A stretch of 64,000 bases of DNA from Gammaproteobacteria bacterium. Lineage in GTDB: Bacteria; Pseudomonadota; Gammaproteobacteria; Burkholderiales; SG8-39. The notes under the pieces are model-generated. The model was not told the origin of the DNA and ran no database searches. It worked only from the letters and a program-made list of their open reading frames with translations. The position numbers and the translations under genes were made by a program. Shown one piece after another: positions 15,742 to 59,287 of this stretch; position 1 is the first letter of the stretch, and each line of letters opens with the position of its first letter. The stretch is taken from contig JBGPPD010000002.1 of NCBI GenBank assembly GCA_041488375.1, positions 3,823 to 67,822 of the forward strand, given 5' to 3'.

Positions 15742-16427
15742 GCTGCCTCGCGCGCCGGCGCCGCCCGCAGATCGGCCAGCACGCTCGAGAGCTTGTGCGC
15801 CAGATGGTCCGCAAGCAGCGCCTTGATGCGGACCACGTCGCGCGCAGCGAGCGCCTCGAGGATCTCGCCGTGCTCACGCACCGCGGCGTCCCAACGCTCC
15901 TGCGACAGGTTCGCCATGTAGCGTGCGCGGCGCACGTTCGCGTTCAGTTGCCGGTAGGTGTTGTAGAGCACCGTGTTGCCGGAGTATTTCACGATCTTCA
16001 GGTGGATCGCCTGGTTGAACTTGAAGTAGCCGGCAAGGTCGCTGCGCGCGTGGTTGGCGAGCATCTCCTGGTGCAGCAAGCGGATCTCGTTGATCTGGCC
16101 GTCGCTCGCTTTGACGCAGGCGAATTCGCCGGCGAGCGCCTCGAGCGCGCCCATCACCGCCAGGGTCTCCGCCAGCCGGACGGCATCGATCTCGGAAACG
16201 ATCGCGCCGCGGTTCGGCAGCAACTCGACCAAGCCTTCGGTAGCGAGTACCTTGAAAGCCTCGCGCAGCGGGGTGCGTGACACGCCAATCTGCGCGGTAA
16301 GCAGTCGCTCGTTCAAGCGGACCCCGGGGGCGAGTCGCCCTTGGACAATCAGGTCGCGCAGCCTGTCCGCAGCTTCCTCGTGCAGGGGCCGACGGGTGAT
16401 GGAAGTGATGTCTTGCGAGAATGTCAT
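15738..16427 (-). CDS. GntR-family (FadR/FCD subfamily) transcriptional regulator
   Basis: ORF 15738..16457 trimmed to the ATG at 16427. Winged-HTH N-terminus (LNERLLTAQIGVSRTPLREAFKVL) followed by an all-helical C-terminal domain. Confidence 0.85.
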   Translation of the reverse strand: MTFSQDITSITRRPLHEEAADRLRDLIVQGRLAPGVRLNERLLTAQIGVSRTPLREAFKVLATEGLVELLPNRGAIVSEIDAVRLAETLAVMGALEALAGEFACVKASDGQINEIRLLHQEMLANHARSDLAGYFKFNQAIHLKIVKYSGNTVLYNTYRQLNANVRRARYMANLSQERWDAAVREHGEILEALAARDVVRIKALLADHLAHKLSSVLADLRAAPAREAA

Positions 16428-16487
16428 TTTGCATGCAGAATACAAAACTTCGTCCAAAATAGCAACTTAAGCTTCTATTGTGGTGAG

Positions 16488-16499
16488 TTTGTATACAAA
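16488..16499. promoter_or_regulatory. candidate GntR operator TTTGTATACAAA
   Basis: Perfect 12-bp palindrome with a GT...AC core, 14 nt upstream of the aminotransferase ATG, in an AT-rich divergent gap. A TACAAA half-site lies near 16441. Confidence 0.5.
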
Positions 16500-16513
16500 A
16501 TGAGGAGATTTGG

Positions 16514-17710
16514 ATGAAGAGGACCGCTGGCCGTCATTTCCTGCAGATTCCGGGACCGACCAACGTACCCGACCGGGTCCTGCGCGCGATCGACCTCCCG
16601 ACCATGGACCACCGCGGGCCGGATTTCGCCGAACTCGGCAAGGCGGTCCTCGACGGCATGAAGCGCGTCTTCAAGACCAAGGGCCAGGTGGTGATCTATC
16701 CCGCCTCCGGCACCGGCGCCTGGGAAGCCGCGCTCGTCAACACGCTCTCGCCCGGCGACCAGGTCCTGATGTACGAGACGGGGCACTTCGCGAGCCTGTG
16801 GCAGAAGATGGCCGCAAAGCTCGGGCTGCAGCCAGAGTTCCTCGCGGGCGACTGGCGGACCGGGGCGGACCCGGCTGCCGTCGAAAGGCGCCTGCGCGAG
16901 GACGCCGGCCATCGCCTCAAGGCAGTCTGCGTTGTGCACAACGAGACTTCGACTGGCGTCACTTCACGCATCGGCGAAGTGCGCAAGGCGATCGACGCGG
17001 CAAGACATCCCGCGCTGTTGATGGTGGACACCATCTCGTCGCTCGCGTCGATCGACTACCGGCACGACGAGTGGGGCGTGGACGTCACCGTCGGCGGCTC
17101 GCAGAAGGGCTTGATGCTGCCGCCGGGGCTGTCCTTCAATGCAATTTCCGACAAGGCGCTGGCCGCTGCCAGGTTGGCGAAGCTGCCGCGCGCCTACTGG
17201 GGATGGGAGGAAATGATCGCCAACGGCAAGGCGGGCTATTTCCCCTACACGCCCGCCACCAACCTGCTCTACGGCCTGCGCGAAGCGCTGAAGATGCTGC
17301 TGGACGAAGAGGGCCTCGACAACGTCTTCGCGAGACACCAGCGCCACGCGGAAGCCACGCGCCGCGCAGTGCGCGCCTGGGGGCTGGAAGTGCTGGCGAC
17401 GAATCCCGCCGAATACAGCGGGGCGCTCACCGCGGTTCTGCTGCCGGCGGGACACGACGCCGACCGGGTACGCAAGATCATCCTCGAGCATTTCGACATG
17501 TCGCTCGGCACGGGCCTCGGCAAGCTCGCGGGCAAGGTGTTCCGCATCGGCCACTTGGGCGACCTCAACGACCTGACGCTGATGGGCACGCTGGCGGGCG
17601 TCGAGATGGGCCTGCAGCTCGCGGGAGTGCCCGCCAAGCAAGCCGGCGTGCAGGCCGCCATGCAATACCTCGCCTCGGTCCACGCGGCCGAGAAGCGCGC
17701 GGCGGCATGA
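16514..17710 (+). CDS. class V aminotransferase (serine-glyoxylate / alanine-glyoxylate / serine-pyruvate type)
   Basis: 398 aa. The N-terminus (GRHFLQIPGPTNVPDRVLRA) and the SQKGLMLPPG PLP-lysine region are typical of this family. Confidence 0.85.
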   Translation: MKRTAGRHFLQIPGPTNVPDRVLRAIDLPTMDHRGPDFAELGKAVLDGMKRVFKTKGQVVIYPASGTGAWEAALVNTLSPGDQVLMYETGHFASLWQKMAAKLGLQPEFLAGDWRTGADPAAVERRLREDAGHRLKAVCVVHNETSTGVTSRIGEVRKAIDAARHPALLMVDTISSLASIDYRHDEWGVDVTVGGSQKGLMLPPGLSFNAISDKALAAARLAKLPRAYWGWEEMIANGKAGYFPYTPATNLLYGLREALKMLLDEEGLDNVFARHQRHAEATRRAVRAWGLEVLATNPAEYSGALTAVLLPAGHDADRVRKIILEHFDMSLGTGLGKLAGKVFRIGHLGDLNDLTLMGTLAGVEMGLQLAGVPAKQAGVQAAMQYLASVHAAEKRAAA

Positions 17711-33730: not shown

Positions 33731-34871
<1,141 letters not shown>

Positions 34872-35347: not shown

Positions 35348-36184
35348 TCAGCGCAGCTTCTTGAGCAGTTGATCGAGGTGGTCGAGGCCGGAGTAGTGCA
35401 CGATCACGCGGCCCTTGCCCTTGCGGCCGCTGCGGATCTCGACTGTGGTGCCCAATCGGTTGGACACCTCTTCTTCAAGTCGCTCGAGGTCCCGATCGGG
35501 CTTCGCCGCACGCCGCGCGCCCTGACCCCGCAACATTTTCGCTACCAGCGCTTCAGTTTCGCGCACCGACAACCCGCGTGCTGCCGTCCTGTTTGCAGCT
35601 TCGATCTGGCGTGCGCCCTCCAGCGCCAGCACTGCACGCGCGTGCCCCATCTCCAGGACACCCTCCATCACCATTGCCTGCACTGGTTTGGCCAGGCGCA
35701 GCAGACGCAGCAAATTGGTCGTGGCACTGCGCGAGCGCCCGACAGCGTCGGCGGCCTGTTCGTGCGTCATGCGGAACTCGTCGACCAGCCGCTGCAATCC
35801 GGCCGCCTCCTCCATGGGATTGAGGTTTTCGCGCTGGATGTTCTCGATCAGCGACATCGCCAATGCGGATTCGTCCGGGACCTCGCGGATGAGCGCGGGG
35901 ATCTCCTGCAGCCCTGCCATCTGCGCAGCGCGCCAGCGCCGCTCCCCGGCGATCAGCTCGTAGCGGTCGCGGTCCACCGGGCGCACCAGTACCGGCTGCA
36001 TGAGGCCCTGGGACTTGATGGACGCGGCGAGTTCGGCGAGCGCTTCCTGTCCCATGCGAGTGCGCGGCTGGTACTTGCCGGGCCGGATTCGGCCCACCGG
36101 CAGCTTGGCGAGCGCATCCCGCGGCGCTTCGCCGGCGCCCAACAGCGCGTCCAGGCCGCGGCCCAGTCCCCTTGGCTTGCTCAT
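35348..36184 (-). CDS. parB: chromosome partitioning protein ParB
   Basis: ORF 35348..36496 trimmed to the ATG at 36184 (MSKPRGLGRGLDALLG). GERRWRAA box and HTH region. Confidence 0.92.
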   Translation of the reverse strand: MSKPRGLGRGLDALLGAGEAPRDALAKLPVGRIRPGKYQPRTRMGQEALAELAASIKSQGLMQPVLVRPVDRDRYELIAGERRWRAAQMAGLQEIPALIREVPDESALAMSLIENIQRENLNPMEEAAGLQRLVDEFRMTHEQAADAVGRSRSATTNLLRLLRLAKPVQAMVMEGVLEMGHARAVLALEGARQIEAANRTAARGLSVRETEALVAKMLRGQGARRAAKPDRDLERLEEEVSNRLGTTVEIRSGRKGKGRVIVHYSGLDHLDQLLKKLR

Positions 36185-36209: not shown

Positions 36210-36995
36210 TCATGCAGCGGCAGACAATCCACTGCGTTCCCGCTCGAGCACTTCCTCGGCCAGCGACAGATACGCCTGGGCGCCCTTGGATTCCGGATCC
36301 CACAGTACCGCCGGCGTGCCGTAGCTTGGCGCCTCGGCCAAACGCACGTTGCGCGGCACGATGCTCCTGTAAACCTTGTCTGCGAAGTGCGTTTCGAGCT
36401 GGTCCGATACCTGCTGCGCGAGCGTATTGCGGGCGTCGTACATGGTACGCAGCAATCCTGCGATCTCCAGGTTCGGATTGAGATTCGCGCGCACACGCTT
36501 GACGGTGTCGACGAGGTCGGACAAGCCTTCCAGCGCGTAGTACTCGCACTGCATCGGGATCAGCACAGACTGCGCGGCCACTAGGCCGTTCAGGGTCAGC
36601 AGCGACAGTGAAGGCGGGCAATCGATGAACACGAAGTCGTATTCGCGCTCGACCGCGGCCAGCGCTGACTTGAGGCGGCTTTCGCGATTCTGCAGATCGA
36701 CCAGTTCGATCTCCGCACCGGCCAGCTCGCGGTTGGCGGGCAGCAGGTCGTAGCCCCCTCGTTCGGCGCGAGTACGAATGTTGGCGATCTCGCCGAGCCC
36801 GAGCAGCACGTGATACACGGTGCGGGCCGCAGTACGCTTGTCCACGCCGCTGCCCATGGTGGCATTGCCCTGCGGGTCCAGGTCGATGAGCAAGGTGCGC
36901 TGGCCAGCGCGGGCGAGCGCGGCGGCGAGATTGACACTGGTGGTGGTCTTGCCGACGCCCCCTTTCTGGTTTACCACTGCGATCACACGCGCCAT
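36210..36995 (-). CDS. parA: chromosome partitioning ATPase ParA (Soj)
   Basis: 261 aa with deviant Walker A NQKGGVGKTT. Confidence 0.92.
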   Translation of the reverse strand: MARVIAVVNQKGGVGKTTTSVNLAAALARAGQRTLLIDLDPQGNATMGSGVDKRTAARTVYHVLLGLGEIANIRTRAERGGYDLLPANRELAGAEIELVDLQNRESRLKSALAAVEREYDFVFIDCPPSLSLLTLNGLVAAQSVLIPMQCEYYALEGLSDLVDTVKRVRANLNPNLEIAGLLRTMYDARNTLAQQVSDQLETHFADKVYRSIVPRNVRLAEAPSYGTPAVLWDPESKGAQAYLSLAEEVLERERSGLSAAA

Positions 36996-36998
36996 GCA

Positions 36999-37628
36999 TC
37001 ACCCTTGGCAATGGCACAGCACGAGATGGCGCTGCGCCTCGAGCAGCGGTACCTGCAGGCGCCGCACATCGCGGCAATCTGCACCGGCAGGCACGCGTTC
37101 GAGTTCTGCTTGCGGAAACACGCCTTTCATCGCGGCGAGCACTCCGCCGGGGGCCAGAAGATGCCGGCAGGCACCGATGAAATCGGCAAGCTCGGCGAAG
37201 CCACGCGTGATGACGCAGTCGAACAGCTGTGCGGGCTGCCAGTCCTGGACTCGGCCGACATGCACGTCTGCATTCGCAAGTTTCAATTCGATCACCGCTT
37301 GCTGCAGGAACGCGCCTTTCTTGTGATTGGCGTCGTTGAGCGTCACGCGACGCTCGGGCTGCGCGATCGCGAGCGGGATCCCGGGCAGCCCGCCGCCCGA
37401 GCCGATGTCCGCAAGCGTTCCCGCCGGCAGATGCGGCAGGACGGCGAGCGAATCGAGCAGGTGGTGGCTGATCATCTTTTCCGGGTCGCGGATCGCGGTC
37501 AGGTTATAGGTCTTGTTCCATTTCGCGAGCAACTCGAGATAGGCGAGCAGTTTTTCCCGCGCTCCCCCGGGCAGCGCCAGCGCAAATTCGTCCAGCCCGC
37601 GCTGCAGCGCGGCCTGTTGCGACCTCAC
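36999..37628 (-). CDS. rsmG: 16S rRNA m7G527 methyltransferase
   Basis: 209 aa with SAM motif [10 protein letters not shown]. Sits between mnmG and parA. Confidence 0.9.
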
Positions 37629-39517
37629 GCACGCTTCTTCTGCGGCGGGAAGCCTCTTTTGAGATGTACCAGCAGCAAAGAGATCGCAGCAGGCGTGATC
37701 CCGGAAATACGTGCCGCTTGACCCAGCGTTTCGGGCCGCTGTTGTTCGAGCTTTTGCAGCACTTCCTTGGATAGCCCGCGCACGGCGCGGTAGTCGAGTT
37801 CAGCCGGCAATCTGCAATCTTCCTGACCAGCATTGCGCTCAACTTCGACTTTCTGGCGCTCGATATAACCTCGGTATTTGGCTTGAATTTCCACTTGCTC
37901 CGCGACCAAATCATCCTCGACACCAGTACCTGCAGTGGGAAGTGTCATAAGTGAGCGATAACTCACTTCTGGCCGCCGCAGCAGCGTGGCAAGGGAGTAG
38001 TGCCGTTCGATCGGCTTGCCAAAGACGCGTACCGCATCAGCCTCGGTGAGCCCTGCGGGCGAGACCCAAAGATGCTCCAGCCGCTCCTGTTCACTGGAAA
38101 TGGCGTCTCGCTTGCGACCAAAGGCATGCCAGCGCGCATCGTCCACCAATCCGAGCCGGCGACCAGTTTCGGTGAGGCGCAGGTCGGCGTTGTCCTCACG
38201 CAGCATGAGCCGGTATTCGGCACGACTGGTGAACATTCGGTATGGCTCCGACACGCCGCGCGTGATGAGATCATCCACGAGCACCCCGAGGTACGCCTCG
38301 TCGCGCCGCGGGCACCACGCGTCAGCACCACGCACCTGAAGCGCAGCGTTGATACCAGCCAGCAAGCCCTGGGCAGCCGCTTCCTCATAGCCCGTCGTGC
38401 CATTGATCTGGCCGGCGAAGAAAAGGCCTCCGAAGGTTTTTGTCTCTAGCGAGGACTTCAGGTTGCGCGGATCGAAATAGTCGTACTCAATGGCATAACC
38501 AGGACGCAGGATGTGGGCTTGTTCGAGCCCTCGAATCGAGCGTACCAGTTCCAGCTGAACGTCGAATGGCAAGCTGGTCGAGATGCCGTTGGGATAGATC
38601 TCGTGAGTTTCCAAGCCCTCAGGCTCTAGGAAGATCTGGTGGCTGGCCTTGTCGGCAAAGCGGTGGATCTTGTCTTCAATAGAAGGGCAGTAACGAGGAC
38701 CAACGCCTTGGATCACCCCTGTGTACATCGGCGAACGGTCCAACCCCTTGCGGATCGCCGCATGGCTACGCTCATTGGTACGCGTGATCCAGCAGGGCAG
38801 CTGGCGCGGATGCATGTTTCGATCGCCCACAAACGAAAAGACCGGCTCGGGTGAATCTCCCGGCTGCTGTTCCATGACCGAAAAATCAATCGACCGGCCA
38901 TCCAGCCGGGGTGGCGTCCCAGTTTTCAGCCTGCCCACCGGCAGTTTCATCTCCCGCAGACGGGCCGCGAGCGTCACAGCGGCAGGATCGCCCGCACGAC
39001 CTGCCTGGTAGCTCTGCAAGCCAACATGGACAACGCCGGAAAGGAACGTTCCAGCAGTCAGCACTACCGCGCGACCGTGGAAGCGGATTCCCAGCTGGGT
39101 GATCACTCCTGCGACACGTCTTCCGTCCAGCACGATATCGTCGACCGCTTGTTGGAACAGCGTCAGATTCGGTTGATTCTCCAGCCTGCGGCGAATCGAT
39201 CGCCGATACAGAACCCGATCCGCTTGCGCGCGCGTGGCTCGCACCGCCGGACCCTTCGAAGAATTCAGCGTGCGAAACTGGATTCCGGCTTCATCCGTGG
39301 CGGAAGCCATTGCGCCACCAAGCGCGTCAATTTCCTTGACCAGGTGCCCTTTGCCAATCCCGCCAATTGACGGATTGCAGGACATTTGGCCCAGCGTCTC
39401 GATGCTGTGAGTCAGTAGCAGGGTTCGACTACCCATCCGGGCGGCGGCGAGGGCAGCTTCGGTGCCGGCATGGCCGCCACCCACCACGATCACATCGAAT
39501 TCAGTCGGAAACTGCAT
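37625..39517 (-). CDS. mnmG: tRNA uridine-5-carboxymethylaminomethyl modification enzyme MnmG (GidA)
   Basis: The track ORF starts at a TTG at 39526. The ATG at 39517 gives [22 protein letters not shown]. Conserved throughout. Confidence 0.95.
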
Positions 39518-39553
39518 GTGGGCCAACTCTGAGGAGGCGGCATGATACGTGAA

Positions 39554-39569
39554 TGTTCCACGTGGAACT
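39554..39569. promoter_or_regulatory. parS centromere-like site (TGTTCCACGTGGAACT)
   Basis: 15 of 16 matches to the palindromic parS TGTTCCACGTGGAACA. Intergenic, upstream of mnmG. Confidence 0.8.
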
Positions 39570-39592
39570 AGCGGAAGCCGCCACCTACACCA

Positions 39593-39608
39593 TGTTCCAC
39601 GTGGAACA
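39593..39608. promoter_or_regulatory. parS centromere-like site (TGTTCCACGTGGAACA, perfect palindrome)
   Basis: Exact 16-bp palindrome matching the parS consensus TGTTNCACGTGNAACA, 39 bp from the first copy. Confidence 0.85.
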
Positions 39609-39624
39609 AGAGTGACTTAGGGGA

Positions 39625-40869
39625 TTGCTGCAATGCAGCAATCTACATTCTCATGAGACAATCGCGGCCCTTTTGCGCCGTCCCCCCGTGATTTCCCTCA
39701 CCCGCTACGCCACGCTTCTCGAACGACCCGATCTGACGCGCACCATCATCGCCTCAGTGATCGGTCGATTGCCGATCGGCATCCTCGGCCTCGCCATCTT
39801 GCTTGCCACACAGGCCTCCAGCGAGTCCTTCGGCCTGGCGGGCGCGGTCGCCGCCTGCTACCTCGCAGGGCTCGCTGCCATGGCGCCCGTGCTCGGGCGC
39901 GTCATCGATCGCAAGGGCCCCGCGCGCACGTTGGCTGTTTGTACATTCCTATTTCCTGCAGCACTTGTGTCCCTGGTTGTAGCTCTGCACCTTGGCGCGC
40001 CCCTATGGACCGCATTCGCACTAGCAGCCCTCGCCGGTGCCTGCTTTCCACCCATAACGGTGTGTCTGCGCACGTTTCTGCGCCAACGCCTGACCGAAGA
40101 GACTCAGCTCGCTGCCGCGTATTCGCTCGAATCCGTGCTGATCGAGATCATTTTCATCATCGGCCCGATGCTGGTCGCCTTCTTCGTCGCCTACCTTTCG
40201 GCCGGTGCGGCCGTCCTGTTTGCCGCAAGTTGCGGCTTGCTCGGCACCTGGCTGTTCCTGCGTTCCCCGGCGCTCGTGCAATGGCGCATCGAGGAACGAA
40301 AGGTTGCGAGCCTGTTCGGACCTCTCGCGGTGCGCGGCTTCGTGCCTCTGCTCGCCGTCATCCTGGCGTACTCGGGCGCGTTCGGCCTGGTGGAGATCGG
40401 CGTCACCGCCTACGCGACGGAATCTGGCCGGCCAGCGCTGGCCGGCTTGATCCTCGGCCTAATGAGCGTGGGTAGCGCAGTCGGGGGCCTTGCTTACGGC
40501 AGCCGTAGTTGGCGCTTGCCGCTCGCGCGCCAGTTCGCCTTGATGCTCGCGATCATGGGAGTGGGTGTTGCTGCGCTGTCGCTGATCGCAAACGTCTTCG
40601 TGTTTTCTGCGCTCGGCGTACTGGCGGGCGTGGTCATGGCGCCGGCGCTTATCATCCAGTCGATGCTCGTCGCCAGAACGGCGCCCCAGCACTTCGCGAC
40701 TGAAGCGTTCACCTGGTCCGCAACCTGCCTGCTAAGCGGCGTTGGCGTCGGCCTCGCCGCCGGCGGACTAATACTTGAGCGCGCGAACTCTGCGGCGGTG
40801 CTGGTAGCGGCGGGAGCGGTGGCACTGAGCGCGTCGCTGATTTCCCTCGCCACACTGCGTGCAAACTAA
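39625..40869 (+). CDS. MFS transporter
   Basis: 12-TM-type hydrophobic profile. The track start is a TTG at 39625 with no convincing RBS. An in-frame GTG at 39688 (MISLTRYATLLERPDL...) is at least as plausible. Confidence 0.75.
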   Translation: MLQCSNLHSHETIAALLRRPPVISLTRYATLLERPDLTRTIIASVIGRLPIGILGLAILLATQASSESFGLAGAVAACYLAGLAAMAPVLGRVIDRKGPARTLAVCTFLFPAALVSLVVALHLGAPLWTAFALAALAGACFPPITVCLRTFLRQRLTEETQLAAAYSLESVLIEIIFIIGPMLVAFFVAYLSAGAAVLFAASCGLLGTWLFLRSPALVQWRIEERKVASLFGPLAVRGFVPLLAVILAYSGAFGLVEIGVTAYATESGRPALAGLILGLMSVGSAVGGLAYGSRSWRLPLARQFALMLAIMGVGVAALSLIANVFVFSALGVLAGVVMAPALIIQSMLVARTAPQHFATEAFTWSATCLLSGVGVGLAAGGLILERANSAAVLVAAGAVALSASLISLATLRAN

Positions 40870-47430: not shown

Positions 47431-47786
47431 GGATTCAAGTTTCTGAGCAGTTCCCTCAGTCGCGTCAGCATCGCCGGCGATCCCCGCGCCCCATACGGGG
47501 GTCGTACCAGCACATCGAGCGGTCCGAGCTGCGCCTGCTCGAGGCGGAACGCCTCGCGGATGCACCGCTTGAGCCGATTGCGCTCGGTGGCAAGCGCGGA
47601 ATGCCGGCGTGTCACCAGAATTCCCAGCCGCGGCGGACCCTCGCCCCTGCGTCTGAGGTAAAAGGTATATCCCGAAAGGCTCCGCCGCCGGCCCTCGCGC
47701 AGCAGCGGTTCGAACGCAGAGCGTCCGGCGAGCTTTCGATCCGCCCCGAAGGGACTAGACCGAGAGCCGCTTGCGGCCGCGTGCAC
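47427..47786 (-). CDS. rnpA: ribonuclease P protein component
   Basis: Basic protein with the RNR-like motif [13 protein letters not shown], between rpmH and yidD. No ATG lies after the rpmH stop, so the start is uncertain. The in-frame GTG at 47786 would overlap rpmH by 32 nt. Confidence 0.8.
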
Positions 47787-47889
47787 GCCGCGCGCGCAGC
47801 ACCGCACGGCCACCGCGCGTGCGGCTGCGAACAAGAAATCCGTGACGCCGCGCGCGTCGCGTCTTGGAAGGCTGGTAGGTGCGTTTCAT
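47755..47889 (-). CDS. rpmH: 50S ribosomal protein L34
   Basis: Absent from the ORF track because it is under 60 aa. Hand translation of the minus strand gives [44 protein letters not shown] followed by a stop. Confidence 0.93.
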
Positions 47890-47982
47890 CGGCCTGCTCG
47901 CTGCGAAAAAGGGCGGTATTAGAGCCTGCGCCGCTCGGCATTGTCAACCTGAATCAACAGGGCACCGCGCAAGACAGAAGTC

Positions 47983-47991
47983 TGTGGATAA
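47983..47991. promoter_or_regulatory. perfect DnaA box (TGTGGATAA / TTATCCACA) in the dnaA upstream region
   Basis: Exact 9-mer, about 100 nt upstream of the dnaA ATG. It overlaps the -35 position relative to a TAAAAT at about 48008. Confidence 0.75.
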
Positions 47992-48089
47992 CGCGACTTG
48001 GAAGGGGTAAAATTTCATTCTCGCTGGCACGTCGCTTCGCGGCCCCGGCGTTGCCCCTGAACAGCGCGTTTCGCGAGACCGCAAAGATC

Positions 48090-49418
48090 ATGCAAAGCCT
48101 CTGGGACGCCTGCCTGCGCCGCTTGGAGCAGGAGCTTCCCGCGCAACAATTCAGCACCTGGATCCGGCCGCTCGCCGCCGAAGCCAGCGCGCAGGAAAAC
48201 GGCACGTTGGTCCTCTCCGCGCCGAATCGCTTCGTCCTCGAACTGGTGCGCGAGCGCTACGCGGGGCGCATCGAGAAGCTGGCGGCCGAGGCGAGCGGCC
48301 GCGACCTCGGTGTGCGCCTGGTGCTGGCGCGCGGCGGCGAAGCGCCCGTGCGCGCCGCGCCACCGCGCAGCAACGCCGAGGCGCCGGCGGTGCTCGAGCG
48401 GGCACGACTCAACCGAATGTTCACGTTCGACAGCTTCGTCACCGGCAAGGCGAACCAGCTGGCGCGCGCGGCGGCCATCCAGGTCTCGGAAAATCCGGGC
48501 ATCTCCTATAACCCTCTATTCATCTATGGCGGCGTGGGACTCGGCAAGACGCATTTGCTGCAGGCGATCGGCAACCACCTTGCGGAGCAGCGTCCGCAAG
48601 CGAGGCTGCGCTACATTCACGCCGAGCAGTACGTCACCGACGTGGTCCGCGCCTACCAGCAGAAATCCTTCGACGAGTTCAAGCGCTATTACCATTCGCT
48701 TGACCTGCTGCTCATCGACGACATCCAGTTCTTCTCCAACAAGGGGCGCACGCAGGAGGAGTTCTTCTACGCCTTCAACGCGCTGGTCGAAGCTCACAAG
48801 CAGATCGTCATCAGCTGCGACACCTATCCGAAGGAAATTGCGGGCATGGAGGAGCGCCTTATTTCGCGCTTCGGCTGGGGCCTGACCGTGGCCATCGAAC
48901 CCCCCGAGCTGGAAATGCGCGTCGCCATTGTCCTGAAGAAGGCCGAAGCCGAAGCGGAGCGCGTCTCCGAGGAGATCGCCTTCTTCATCGCCAAGAACAT
49001 CCGCTCGAACGTGCGCGAACTGGAAGGCGCACTGAAGAAGGTGCTCGCTTTCGCGCGCTTCAATGGACGGGAGCTGTCGCTTGAGCTCGCCAAGGAGGCG
49101 CTGCGCGACATTCTCAACGTCGCCAGCCGGCAGATCAGCGTCGATGGCATCCAGAAGACGGTGGCGGAGTATTTCAAGCTGAAGATTTCCGACATGCATT
49201 CCAAGAAGCGCAGCCGCAACGTGGCGCGGCCGCGCCAGGTCGCGATGTGCCTCGCCAAGGACTTGACGCCCATGAGCCTGCCAGAGATCGGCGAGGCGTT
49301 CGGCAATCGCGACCACACGACAGTGCTGCATGCCTGCCGCACCATTTCAAGTCTGCGCAAGAAGGACTCCACGCTCAACCGGGACTACCTGGTGCTCGAA
49401 CAGGTACTGAAAGGATGA
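48090..49418 (+). CDS. dnaA: chromosomal replication initiator protein DnaA
   Basis: ORF 47601..49418 trimmed to the ATG at 48090 ([28 protein letters not shown]). AAA+ Walker [11 protein letters not shown] and C-terminal DNA-binding domain (DHTTVLHA). Confidence 0.95.
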
Positions 49419-58640: not shown

Positions 58641-58783
58641 GGGGCCCCCGAACCTTTCCTTGTTCCCGGGCTGGCGTGAAAATCCCTTTGCCATCCAAAT
58701 GTAGCATAAACGTCGAATTGTTTACCTGCTGCCTTAGATTGTGCATCTAATTTATTCAATTTGCAACGCTATTTCCCTGTCAG

Positions 58784-59287
58784 ATGGCCCAACTGAACAT
58801 CCTGCGCTACCCTGATGCCCGGCTGCATAAGCTGGCCGCGCCGGTGACGGTCTTCGACGAGTCGCTCAAGACCCTGGTGCGCGAGCTGGCCGAGACCATG
58901 TATGCCGCCCCGGGCGTTGGGTTGGCCGCCACGCAGGTCGATGTGCATAGGCAAGTCATCGTGGTCGATGTTTCGGAGCGGCGCGATTCTTTGGTGGTGC
59001 TGGTCAATCCCGAAATTGTCGAGGCCTCCGGCATATCCGACATCGAGGAAGGCTGCCTCTCGGTGCCCGGCGTTTACGACGTCGTGGCGCGCGCCGAGCG
59101 CGTCAAGGTGCGGGCCTACGATCAGAACGGCAATCCGTTTACGCTCGAAGCGCAGGGCCTGCTCGCAGTGTGCATCCAGCACGAGATGGACCACCTGAAG
59201 GGCAAGGTGTTCGTCGAGTATCTTTCGCAGCTCAAGCAGCAGCGCGTGCGCGCCAGGCTCGCCAAGCAGTTGCGCAAGTCTGCCTAA
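58784..59287 (+). CDS. def: peptide deformylase
   Basis: 167 aa with motifs [13 protein letters not shown] and QHEMDH. Confidence 0.95.

Follow-up and report, generated by a model that had tools for sequence, protein, structure and literature searches.

The closest described systems are the parS centromeres of Pseudomonas aeruginosa and Burkholderia. In P. aeruginosa, parS2 and parS3 share the sequence TGTTCCACGTGGAACA and are the highest-affinity sites of that species, and parS1 and parS4, which carry one mismatch at position 16, are still bound (PMC4368675). Any one of these four origin-proximal sites suffices for segregation, as was tested with parS2 or parS4 alone (PMC4368675). The region upstream of gidA in this species contains DnaA boxes (oriCII) and not parS, and gidAB-parAB form one transcript (PMC13438810). 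For the Burkholderia protein ParBc1, surface-plasmon measurements showed tolerance of one distal change and of the symmetric 5/12 transition, and the C5/G12 form was called typical of Pseudomonas (PMC5450999). Two parS sites of the universal consensus have been tabulated for chromosome 1 of B. cenocepacia (PMC7022226).

This work compares these systems with a locus from an uncultured Burkholderiales-like MAG, a betaproteobacterium, within a 64-kb stretch of DNA that was analysed as a whole and is referred to here as the window. Two parS sites, parS1 and parS2, lie upstream of mnmG (gidA) at the coordinates and the distance of 39 bp, start to start, that the original prediction had given (Table 1). 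We consider it about 90% probable that they are genuine ParB-bound chromosomal parS sites and represent an origin-proximal centromere, because they match the consensus, are rare in the window, are accompanied by the cognate genes, lie close to the origin and are conserved in position, all of which is documented below. The pair is an ordinary, widely conserved arrangement for this bacterial group. The window resembles the parS1 to parS4 system of P. aeruginosa in the 16-mer, in the origin-proximal clustering of the sites and in the gene order gidA-gidB-parA-parB. It differs in its host, which is a betaproteobacterium and not Pseudomonas, and in the position of the sites, both of which lie directly upstream of mnmG, whereas the four P. 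aeruginosa sites are found ~10-20 kb from parAB. The parSc1 system of B. cenocepacia, with two sites per main chromosome, is like the window in bacterial order (Burkholderiales) and in the consensus tGTTNCACGTGAAACa.

Table 1. Coordinates of the parS pair and of surrounding features in the window. Genes were mapped with NCBIfam scans and public gene calls.
Feature	Position	Strand	Remarks
parB	35348..36184	-	278 aa; TIGR00180, 194 bits (cut-off 58)
parA (Soj-type ATPase)	36210..36995	-	ParA-family matches; Pfam CbiA/ParA/AAA_31; 3 bp after rsmG
rsmG (gidB)	36999..37628	-	TIGR00138, 172 bits; 4-bp overlap of its start with the mnmG stop
mnmG (gidA)	37625..39517	-	TIGR00136, 890 bits; first gene of the cluster
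putative -10 hexamer, TATCAT	39542..39547	-	inferred from conservation; followed by the GC-rich leader CCGCCTCC
parS1 (mnmG-proximal)	39554..39569	.	TGTTCCACGTGGAACT; one mismatch, at distal position 16
parS2 (distal)	39593..39608	.	TGTTCCACGTGGAACA; perfect 16-bp palindrome
MFS transporter gene, divergent	39688..40869	+	PF07690, TIGR00900; 393-aa gene call; GTG start
dnaA	48090..49418	+	TIGR00362; ATG at 48090

Relative to the mnmG ATG, parS1 is located at -52 and parS2 at -91; read in the direction of mnmG, parS1 is AGTTCCACGTGGAACA. The predicted agreement with the parS consensus TGTTNCACGTGAAACA is borne out, with no mismatch in parS2, one in parS1 and an intact CACGTG core in both, and parS2 is identical to parS2/parS3 of P. 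aeruginosa. Both sites are of the C5/G12 form. The palindromic form had been presented as the one described for Pseudomonas; the match itself holds, but the form is not Pseudomonas-specific, as the double C5/G12 form accounts for 13 of the 146 sites in the betaproteobacterial loci surveyed here, where mixed forms are common. An additional 5' A, said to be shared by both copies, is indeed present at 39553 (parS1) and 39592 (parS2) but is not kept in relatives (L003 has C).

The suggested motif search with up to two mismatches was run on the 64-kb window with TGTTNCACGTGNAACA and returned exactly two matches, parS1 and parS2. Dinucleotide shuffles give an expectation of 0.09 parS-like matches per 64 kb, and none of 100 shuffles reaches two. 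A dispersed repeat, which the original prediction had named as the alternative, is improbable as far as the window goes, with two sites in 64 kb, both in one gap. When three mismatches to the C5/G12 form were allowed, no further matches were obtained in the 64-kb window, and a 3-mismatch match at 34480, inside the atp operon, was dismissed as being at chance level. Half-sites were counted as well. GTTCCAC occurs 13 times in the window, four of them inside the parS pair, and its 9 isolated copies (5.7 expected) represent no enrichment; GTTTCAC (3 copies versus 4.6 expected) is not enriched in the window either. On these counts, an enrichment of ParB half-sites as in P. aeruginosa was rejected. 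Since the intergenic sequence is base-for-base identical in a JGI metagenome contig and in NCBI MAG GCA_041476835.1, two independent assemblies, an assembly artefact is excluded.

The start of mnmG was set at ATG 39517, where the orthologues align from residue 1, and that of the MFS gene at GTG 39688, which both gene callers selected and which is favoured by indels of a length other than a multiple of 3 upstream of this codon in relatives. The gap between the two genes then covers 39518-39687. The sites had been assigned to a gap of 98 bp, a figure that arises from the longest ORFs (TTG 39526 and TTG 39625). Their intergenic location stands under either set of gene starts, but the length has to be corrected to 170 bp by the gene calls. 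Within the cluster of mnmG, rsmG, parA and parB, neighbouring genes overlap or are 3-25 bp apart. parA and parB lie 2.6-3.4 kb from the parS pair, and the ~3.4 kb originally estimated for parB agrees with its start at 36184, 3.37 kb away. An aminotransferase, a GTP-dependent PEPCK, mnmE, yidC, rnpA and rpmH are encoded between the MFS gene and dnaA.

The ParB of this cluster is the presumed cognate binder of parS1 and parS2 and, to judge from its sequence, is a standard chromosomal ParB. It contains the Pfam domains ParB_N, HTH_ParB and ParB_C, displays two motifs of the N-terminal, CTP-binding domain, GERRWRA and ENIQRENLNP, and scores under the cut-off of the Noc model. Its closest relatives of known structure are the chromosomal ParB proteins of Myxococcus, Thermus and Caulobacter (E 1e-55 to 1e-45); KorB matches it weakly (E 9e-11).

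Cumulative GC skew reaches a minimum at ~48-50 kb, around dnaA and dnaN, which places the parS pair ~8-10 kb from the probable origin as marked by this minimum and by dnaA. The predicted location near the origin is thereby supported, and the predicted distance of ~8.5 kb to dnaA is confirmed (ATG 48090 is 8.48 kb from 39608). The window contains one perfect DnaA box, TTATCCACA at 47983-47991, in the 200-bp gap between rpmH and dnaA; no cluster of DnaA boxes was found anywhere in the window and no AT-rich unwinding element near dnaA. A 605-aa 'dnaA' ORF (extension 47601-48090) is a high-GC artefact, in which DnaA homology starts at residue 168, so that ATG 48090 is the likely start of dnaA, and rpmH, on the minus strand, starts at 47889. 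The most AT-rich 100-bp stretches of the window, which has 65% GC, are 16391-16520 and 58671-58800 with 60-66% A+T.

To assess positional conservation, 80 orthologous loci, all betaproteobacterial, were retrieved with the mnmG protein and scanned for parS with at most one mismatch. The closest mnmG loci (81-85% identity) belong to uncultured Burkholderiales-like MAGs, and the mnmG-rsmG-parA-parB synteny is kept in nearly all of the 80 loci. Upstream sequence was sufficient in 79 loci. In 49 of these, the 300 bp upstream of mnmG contain one or more parS sites; 20 loci carry at least two there, and 3 carry three. The density of parS is 3.0 per kb in these 300 bp and 0.044 per kb farther upstream; within mnmG it is ~0.25 per kb and across rsmG-parA 0.23 per kb, and beyond +3000 no parS was found in 325 kb of the orthologous loci. 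Across ~1 Mb of these loci, all parS sites fall in the mnmG region or within 6 kb upstream of mnmG.

L001 and L003, the loci most closely related to the window, carry this pair as well, at -92/-52, and the proximal site is kept at -50 to -52 in L001, L002, L003, L006 and L063. In an alignment of eight sequences (A1), the parS2 columns are invariant and the proximal box is retained in the five nearest sequences, while the intervening spacer shows no conservation. Conserved boxes around a free spacer are the footprint that would be expected of two independently selected protein-binding sites. One of these relatives, L001 (CAZOSA010000003.1), is titled 'uncultured Enterobacteriaceae bacterium', a taxonomic label that looks wrong: its mnmG, parA and parB are 85-92% identical to those of the window, and it also has the MFS neighbour and the parS pair.

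Positions relative to mnmG in Burkholderia were taken from the scan in the present analysis. The loci of Burkholderia, Paraburkholderia, Caballeronia and Trinickia have one parS 122-162 bp upstream of mnmG, as the window has upstream sites, but their second site lies inside mnmG at +1418, whereas both sites of the window are upstream; at mnmG +1418, the window has 7 mismatches to parS. Compared with the Burkholderia type, the window further has C5/G12 on both sites and a proximal site that abuts the putative -10 hexamer. The two-site count of B. cenocepacia matches the approximately two sites per mnmG region in the survey. Overall, about 2-3 parS sites per mnmG region are kept, at positions that are lineage-specific.

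Perfect parS sites inside coding sequence were observed in the Burkholderia-type genera, Cupriavidus and Comamonadaceae. The site at mnmG +1418 is encoded as Val-Ser-Arg-Glu-Thr and is present in L019-L024, L028, L030, L048 and L070. A further group with coding parS (L032, L036, L045, L051, L054, L056, L058, L062, L069, L072-L074 and L077-L080) has positions from +1418 to +1487, from +1604 to +1703 and from about +2500 to +2756. Other coding sites occur near the 3' end of mnmG and in rsmG/parA. In the surveyed Comamonadaceae loci, no parS lies upstream of mnmG and all sites are inside coding sequence.

Ten loci (L007, L031, L033, L034, L038, L040, L041, L055, L057 and L076) showed no parS with up to two mismatches in the ~14 kb fetched, and the position upstream of mnmG is therefore common, not obligatory. 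These loci are Neisseriales-, Chromobacteriaceae- or Rhodocyclaceae-like (e.g., Aquitalea, Andreprevotia, Dechloromonas and Thauera). The mnmG-rsmG-parA-parB synteny is found in nine of them, and the sequence of the remaining one, L038, ends just after mnmG. Their centromeres must be located elsewhere or have a different motif.

We infer ParB binding, CTP-dependent spreading, segregation and SMC loading at the pair from established knowledge of ParABS. ParB, whose gene lies 3.4 kb away in the cluster, would recognise each palindrome as a dimer via its helix-turn-helix domains, bind CTP, close as a clamp and slide onto the flanking DNA to form a partition complex, which ParA would move. In other species, the partition complex recruits SMC. 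The two sites, 39 bp apart, would constitute two adjacent loading points, and such a tandem pair could be a strong ParB nucleation point.

An operator role of parS1 in addition to the centromere function, with which it is compatible, is possible but doubtful. ParB bound to parS1 would compete with RNA polymerase, resulting in negative autoregulation of par and in coupling of mnmG/rsmG to ParB occupancy. As far as this regulatory reading is concerned, the locus shares with KorB and with the autoregulation of plasmid partition operons the idea of a ParB-family protein on a palindrome in the promoter of its own operon; the window ParB is a canonical chromosomal ParB, unlike KorB-type repressors, and the comparison is one of working principle. 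The reading is favoured by a conserved -10-like hexamer with a GC-rich discriminator: TATAAT, TATGAT or TATCAT with a GC-rich CGCGCC(TC) was found upstream of mnmG in 46 of the 80 loci, versus 8.6% of shuffled controls. In the window and in L001, L002, L003 and L006, the gap between the proximal parS and this hexamer is 6 bp. L063 has the same layout with parS at -50, though the motif regex has no match there, and in all other lineages the gap measures 15-239 bp. If transcription starts near 39535, parS1 would occupy approximately -34 to -19, i.e., the spacer and the -35 position. An influence of the pair on promoter activity, as originally suggested, becomes more plausible for mnmG with the 6-bp gap. 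The divergent MFS neighbour is kept only in the clade of the window, the same clade that has the 6-bp gap. The tight packing of the four genes and the single transcript of the homologous gidAB-parAB in P. aeruginosa (PMC13438810) are also in line with an operator, as is the repression of adjacent genes by P. aeruginosa ParB at the intergenic sites parS3 and parS4 (PMC7022226).

Several observations weigh against such an operator. The promoter is a deduced one: a strict scan for sigma-70 promoters and terminators across 39350-39850 found nothing and the -35 is poor, so the -10 assignment was made from conservation only. In several species, loss of ParB barely alters the expression of parS-adjacent genes, and parAB may be transcribed separately from internal promoters, as is the case in P. 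aeruginosa (PMC13438810). Because parS lies well upstream of the -10 in most Betaproteobacteria, regulation is not the reason why its position has been conserved.

Further features of the gap were recorded. The 6-bp spacer between parS1 and the -10 (39548-39553) reads TTCACG in the direction of mnmG and is ttcacg in 4 loci, atcacg in 1 and gtcgcg in 1; the end of parS1 together with this spacer repeats the parS core TTCACGT, and the conservation is unusually high for a promoter spacer. A 9-codon plus-strand mini-ORF across parS1 (ATG 39542, preceded by GAGGAGG) was rejected as a coincidence: its length is not conserved in L001 (by eye, alignment A1), and its 'SD', GAGGAGG, is simply the opposite strand of the C/T-rich leader of mnmG, which is conserved. 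No RNA family was matched when 39300-39900 was scanned against Rfam at E ≤ 1. On the other side of the pair, a 19-bp palindrome, ATTGCTGCAaTGCAGCAAT, is located at 39624-39642, 16 bp past parS2 toward the MFS gene. Its arms (TGCTGC...GCAGCA) are kept in L001, L002 and L003, its 3-bp centre is variable, and no compensatory changes were seen. At 39657-39669 lies a conserved element, GACAAT+CGCGGCC, that may be the MFS promoter; the palindrome covers its -35 position and looks like an operator-like element for some regulator.

It is very improbable that the two repeats serve as DnaA boxes in an oriC-like element, comparable to the Pseudomonas oriCII upstream of gidA or to the E. coli oriC next to gidA. 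DnaA boxes do occur upstream of gidA in Pseudomonas (PMC13438810), and parS half-sites are similar enough to DnaA boxes for miscalls by Ori-finder (Fig 1 legend, PMC4948915). Each half-site of the pair, however, has two mismatches to TTWTNCACA and, in contrast to P. aeruginosa, no DnaA box with at most one mismatch is found at 39400-39800. What is conserved is the whole 16-bp palindrome, not a 9-mer, and no AT-rich unwinding element is found nearby, the A+T-richest 100-bp windows being situated at 16.4 kb and 58.7 kb. It is also very improbable that the palindromes are paired by chance, belong to a dispersed repeat or are recognised by some unrelated regulator with CACGTG specificity: CACGTG-core palindromes can in general be bound by other proteins, but both sites fall within 55 bp where 0.09 are expected per window, half-sites outside the pair show no enrichment in the window, and the full 16-mer is kept at this locus, beside parAB, in different orders of Betaproteobacteria.

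With the pair taken as a tandem parS centromere, its spacing was compared with that of other tandem pairs. Start-to-start spacings in the betaproteobacterial set range from 26 to 70 bp, with a mode of 38-40 bp. As a test on an independent sample, metagenome contigs were scanned for two perfect parS sites 24-54 bp apart, which yielded at least 143 pairs, at least 127 of them with unique spacers, at least 121 of these not upstream of mnmG. Locus GC of the metagenome pairs (L083-L202) runs from 26% to 74% among the matches listed. For the 127 unique pairs among the matches listed, the spacings are clearly not uniform: those of 38-40 bp are enriched (29 versus 12.3 expected, p=1e-5) and those of 27-33 bp are depleted (6 versus 28.7 expected), under a crude dereplication that ignores kinship. 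The enrichment at 38-40 bp is retained when pairs upstream of mnmG are left out (27 versus 11.7 expected, p=3e-5, among the matches listed). A minor peak lies at 25-26 bp, and the 39 bp of the window falls in the commonest class, 38-40 bp, both again among the matches listed. We regard the 38-40 bp preference of tandem parS pairs as a lead, not a result; no report of it was found in a limited search of the literature. The spacing bias could be caused by adjacent ParB dimers excluding each other sterically. Helical phasing at 10.5 bp was also considered and was rejected as unproven. The betaproteobacterial spacings have a Rayleigh peak at exactly 10.5 bp (R 0.47-0.53, fixed-period p 0.024), for which p is 0.14 after scanning periods, and helical periodicity was not supported in the 127 unique metagenome pairs among the matches listed (R=0.14, p=0.09).

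Combined, the promoter overlap and the spacing would suggest that in this clade the proximal parS moved into the core promoter, with ParB throttling its own operon and two translation-fidelity genes, and that tandem pairs in general prefer 38-40 bp and avoid 27-33 bp; we consider this unlikely. If true, the former would amount to a feedback loop of the plasmid type operating on a chromosome, and the 38-40 bp preference would suggest that a constraint, steric or cooperative, acts on two ParB clamps that load next to each other. If confirmed, both would be of modest interest for the mechanics of ParB loading and for par-operon regulation, and they leave the current understanding of ParABS unchanged. 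The 'Pseudomonas' C5/G12 variant of parS exists outside Pseudomonas. Among Betaproteobacteria, the placement of the sites varies by lineage: both are upstream of mnmG in the window, one is upstream and one inside mnmG in Burkholderia, and all are in coding sequence in Comamonadaceae. In annotation, the pair serves as a marker for the centromere and for the domain near the origin in the chromosome of an uncultured betaproteobacterium.
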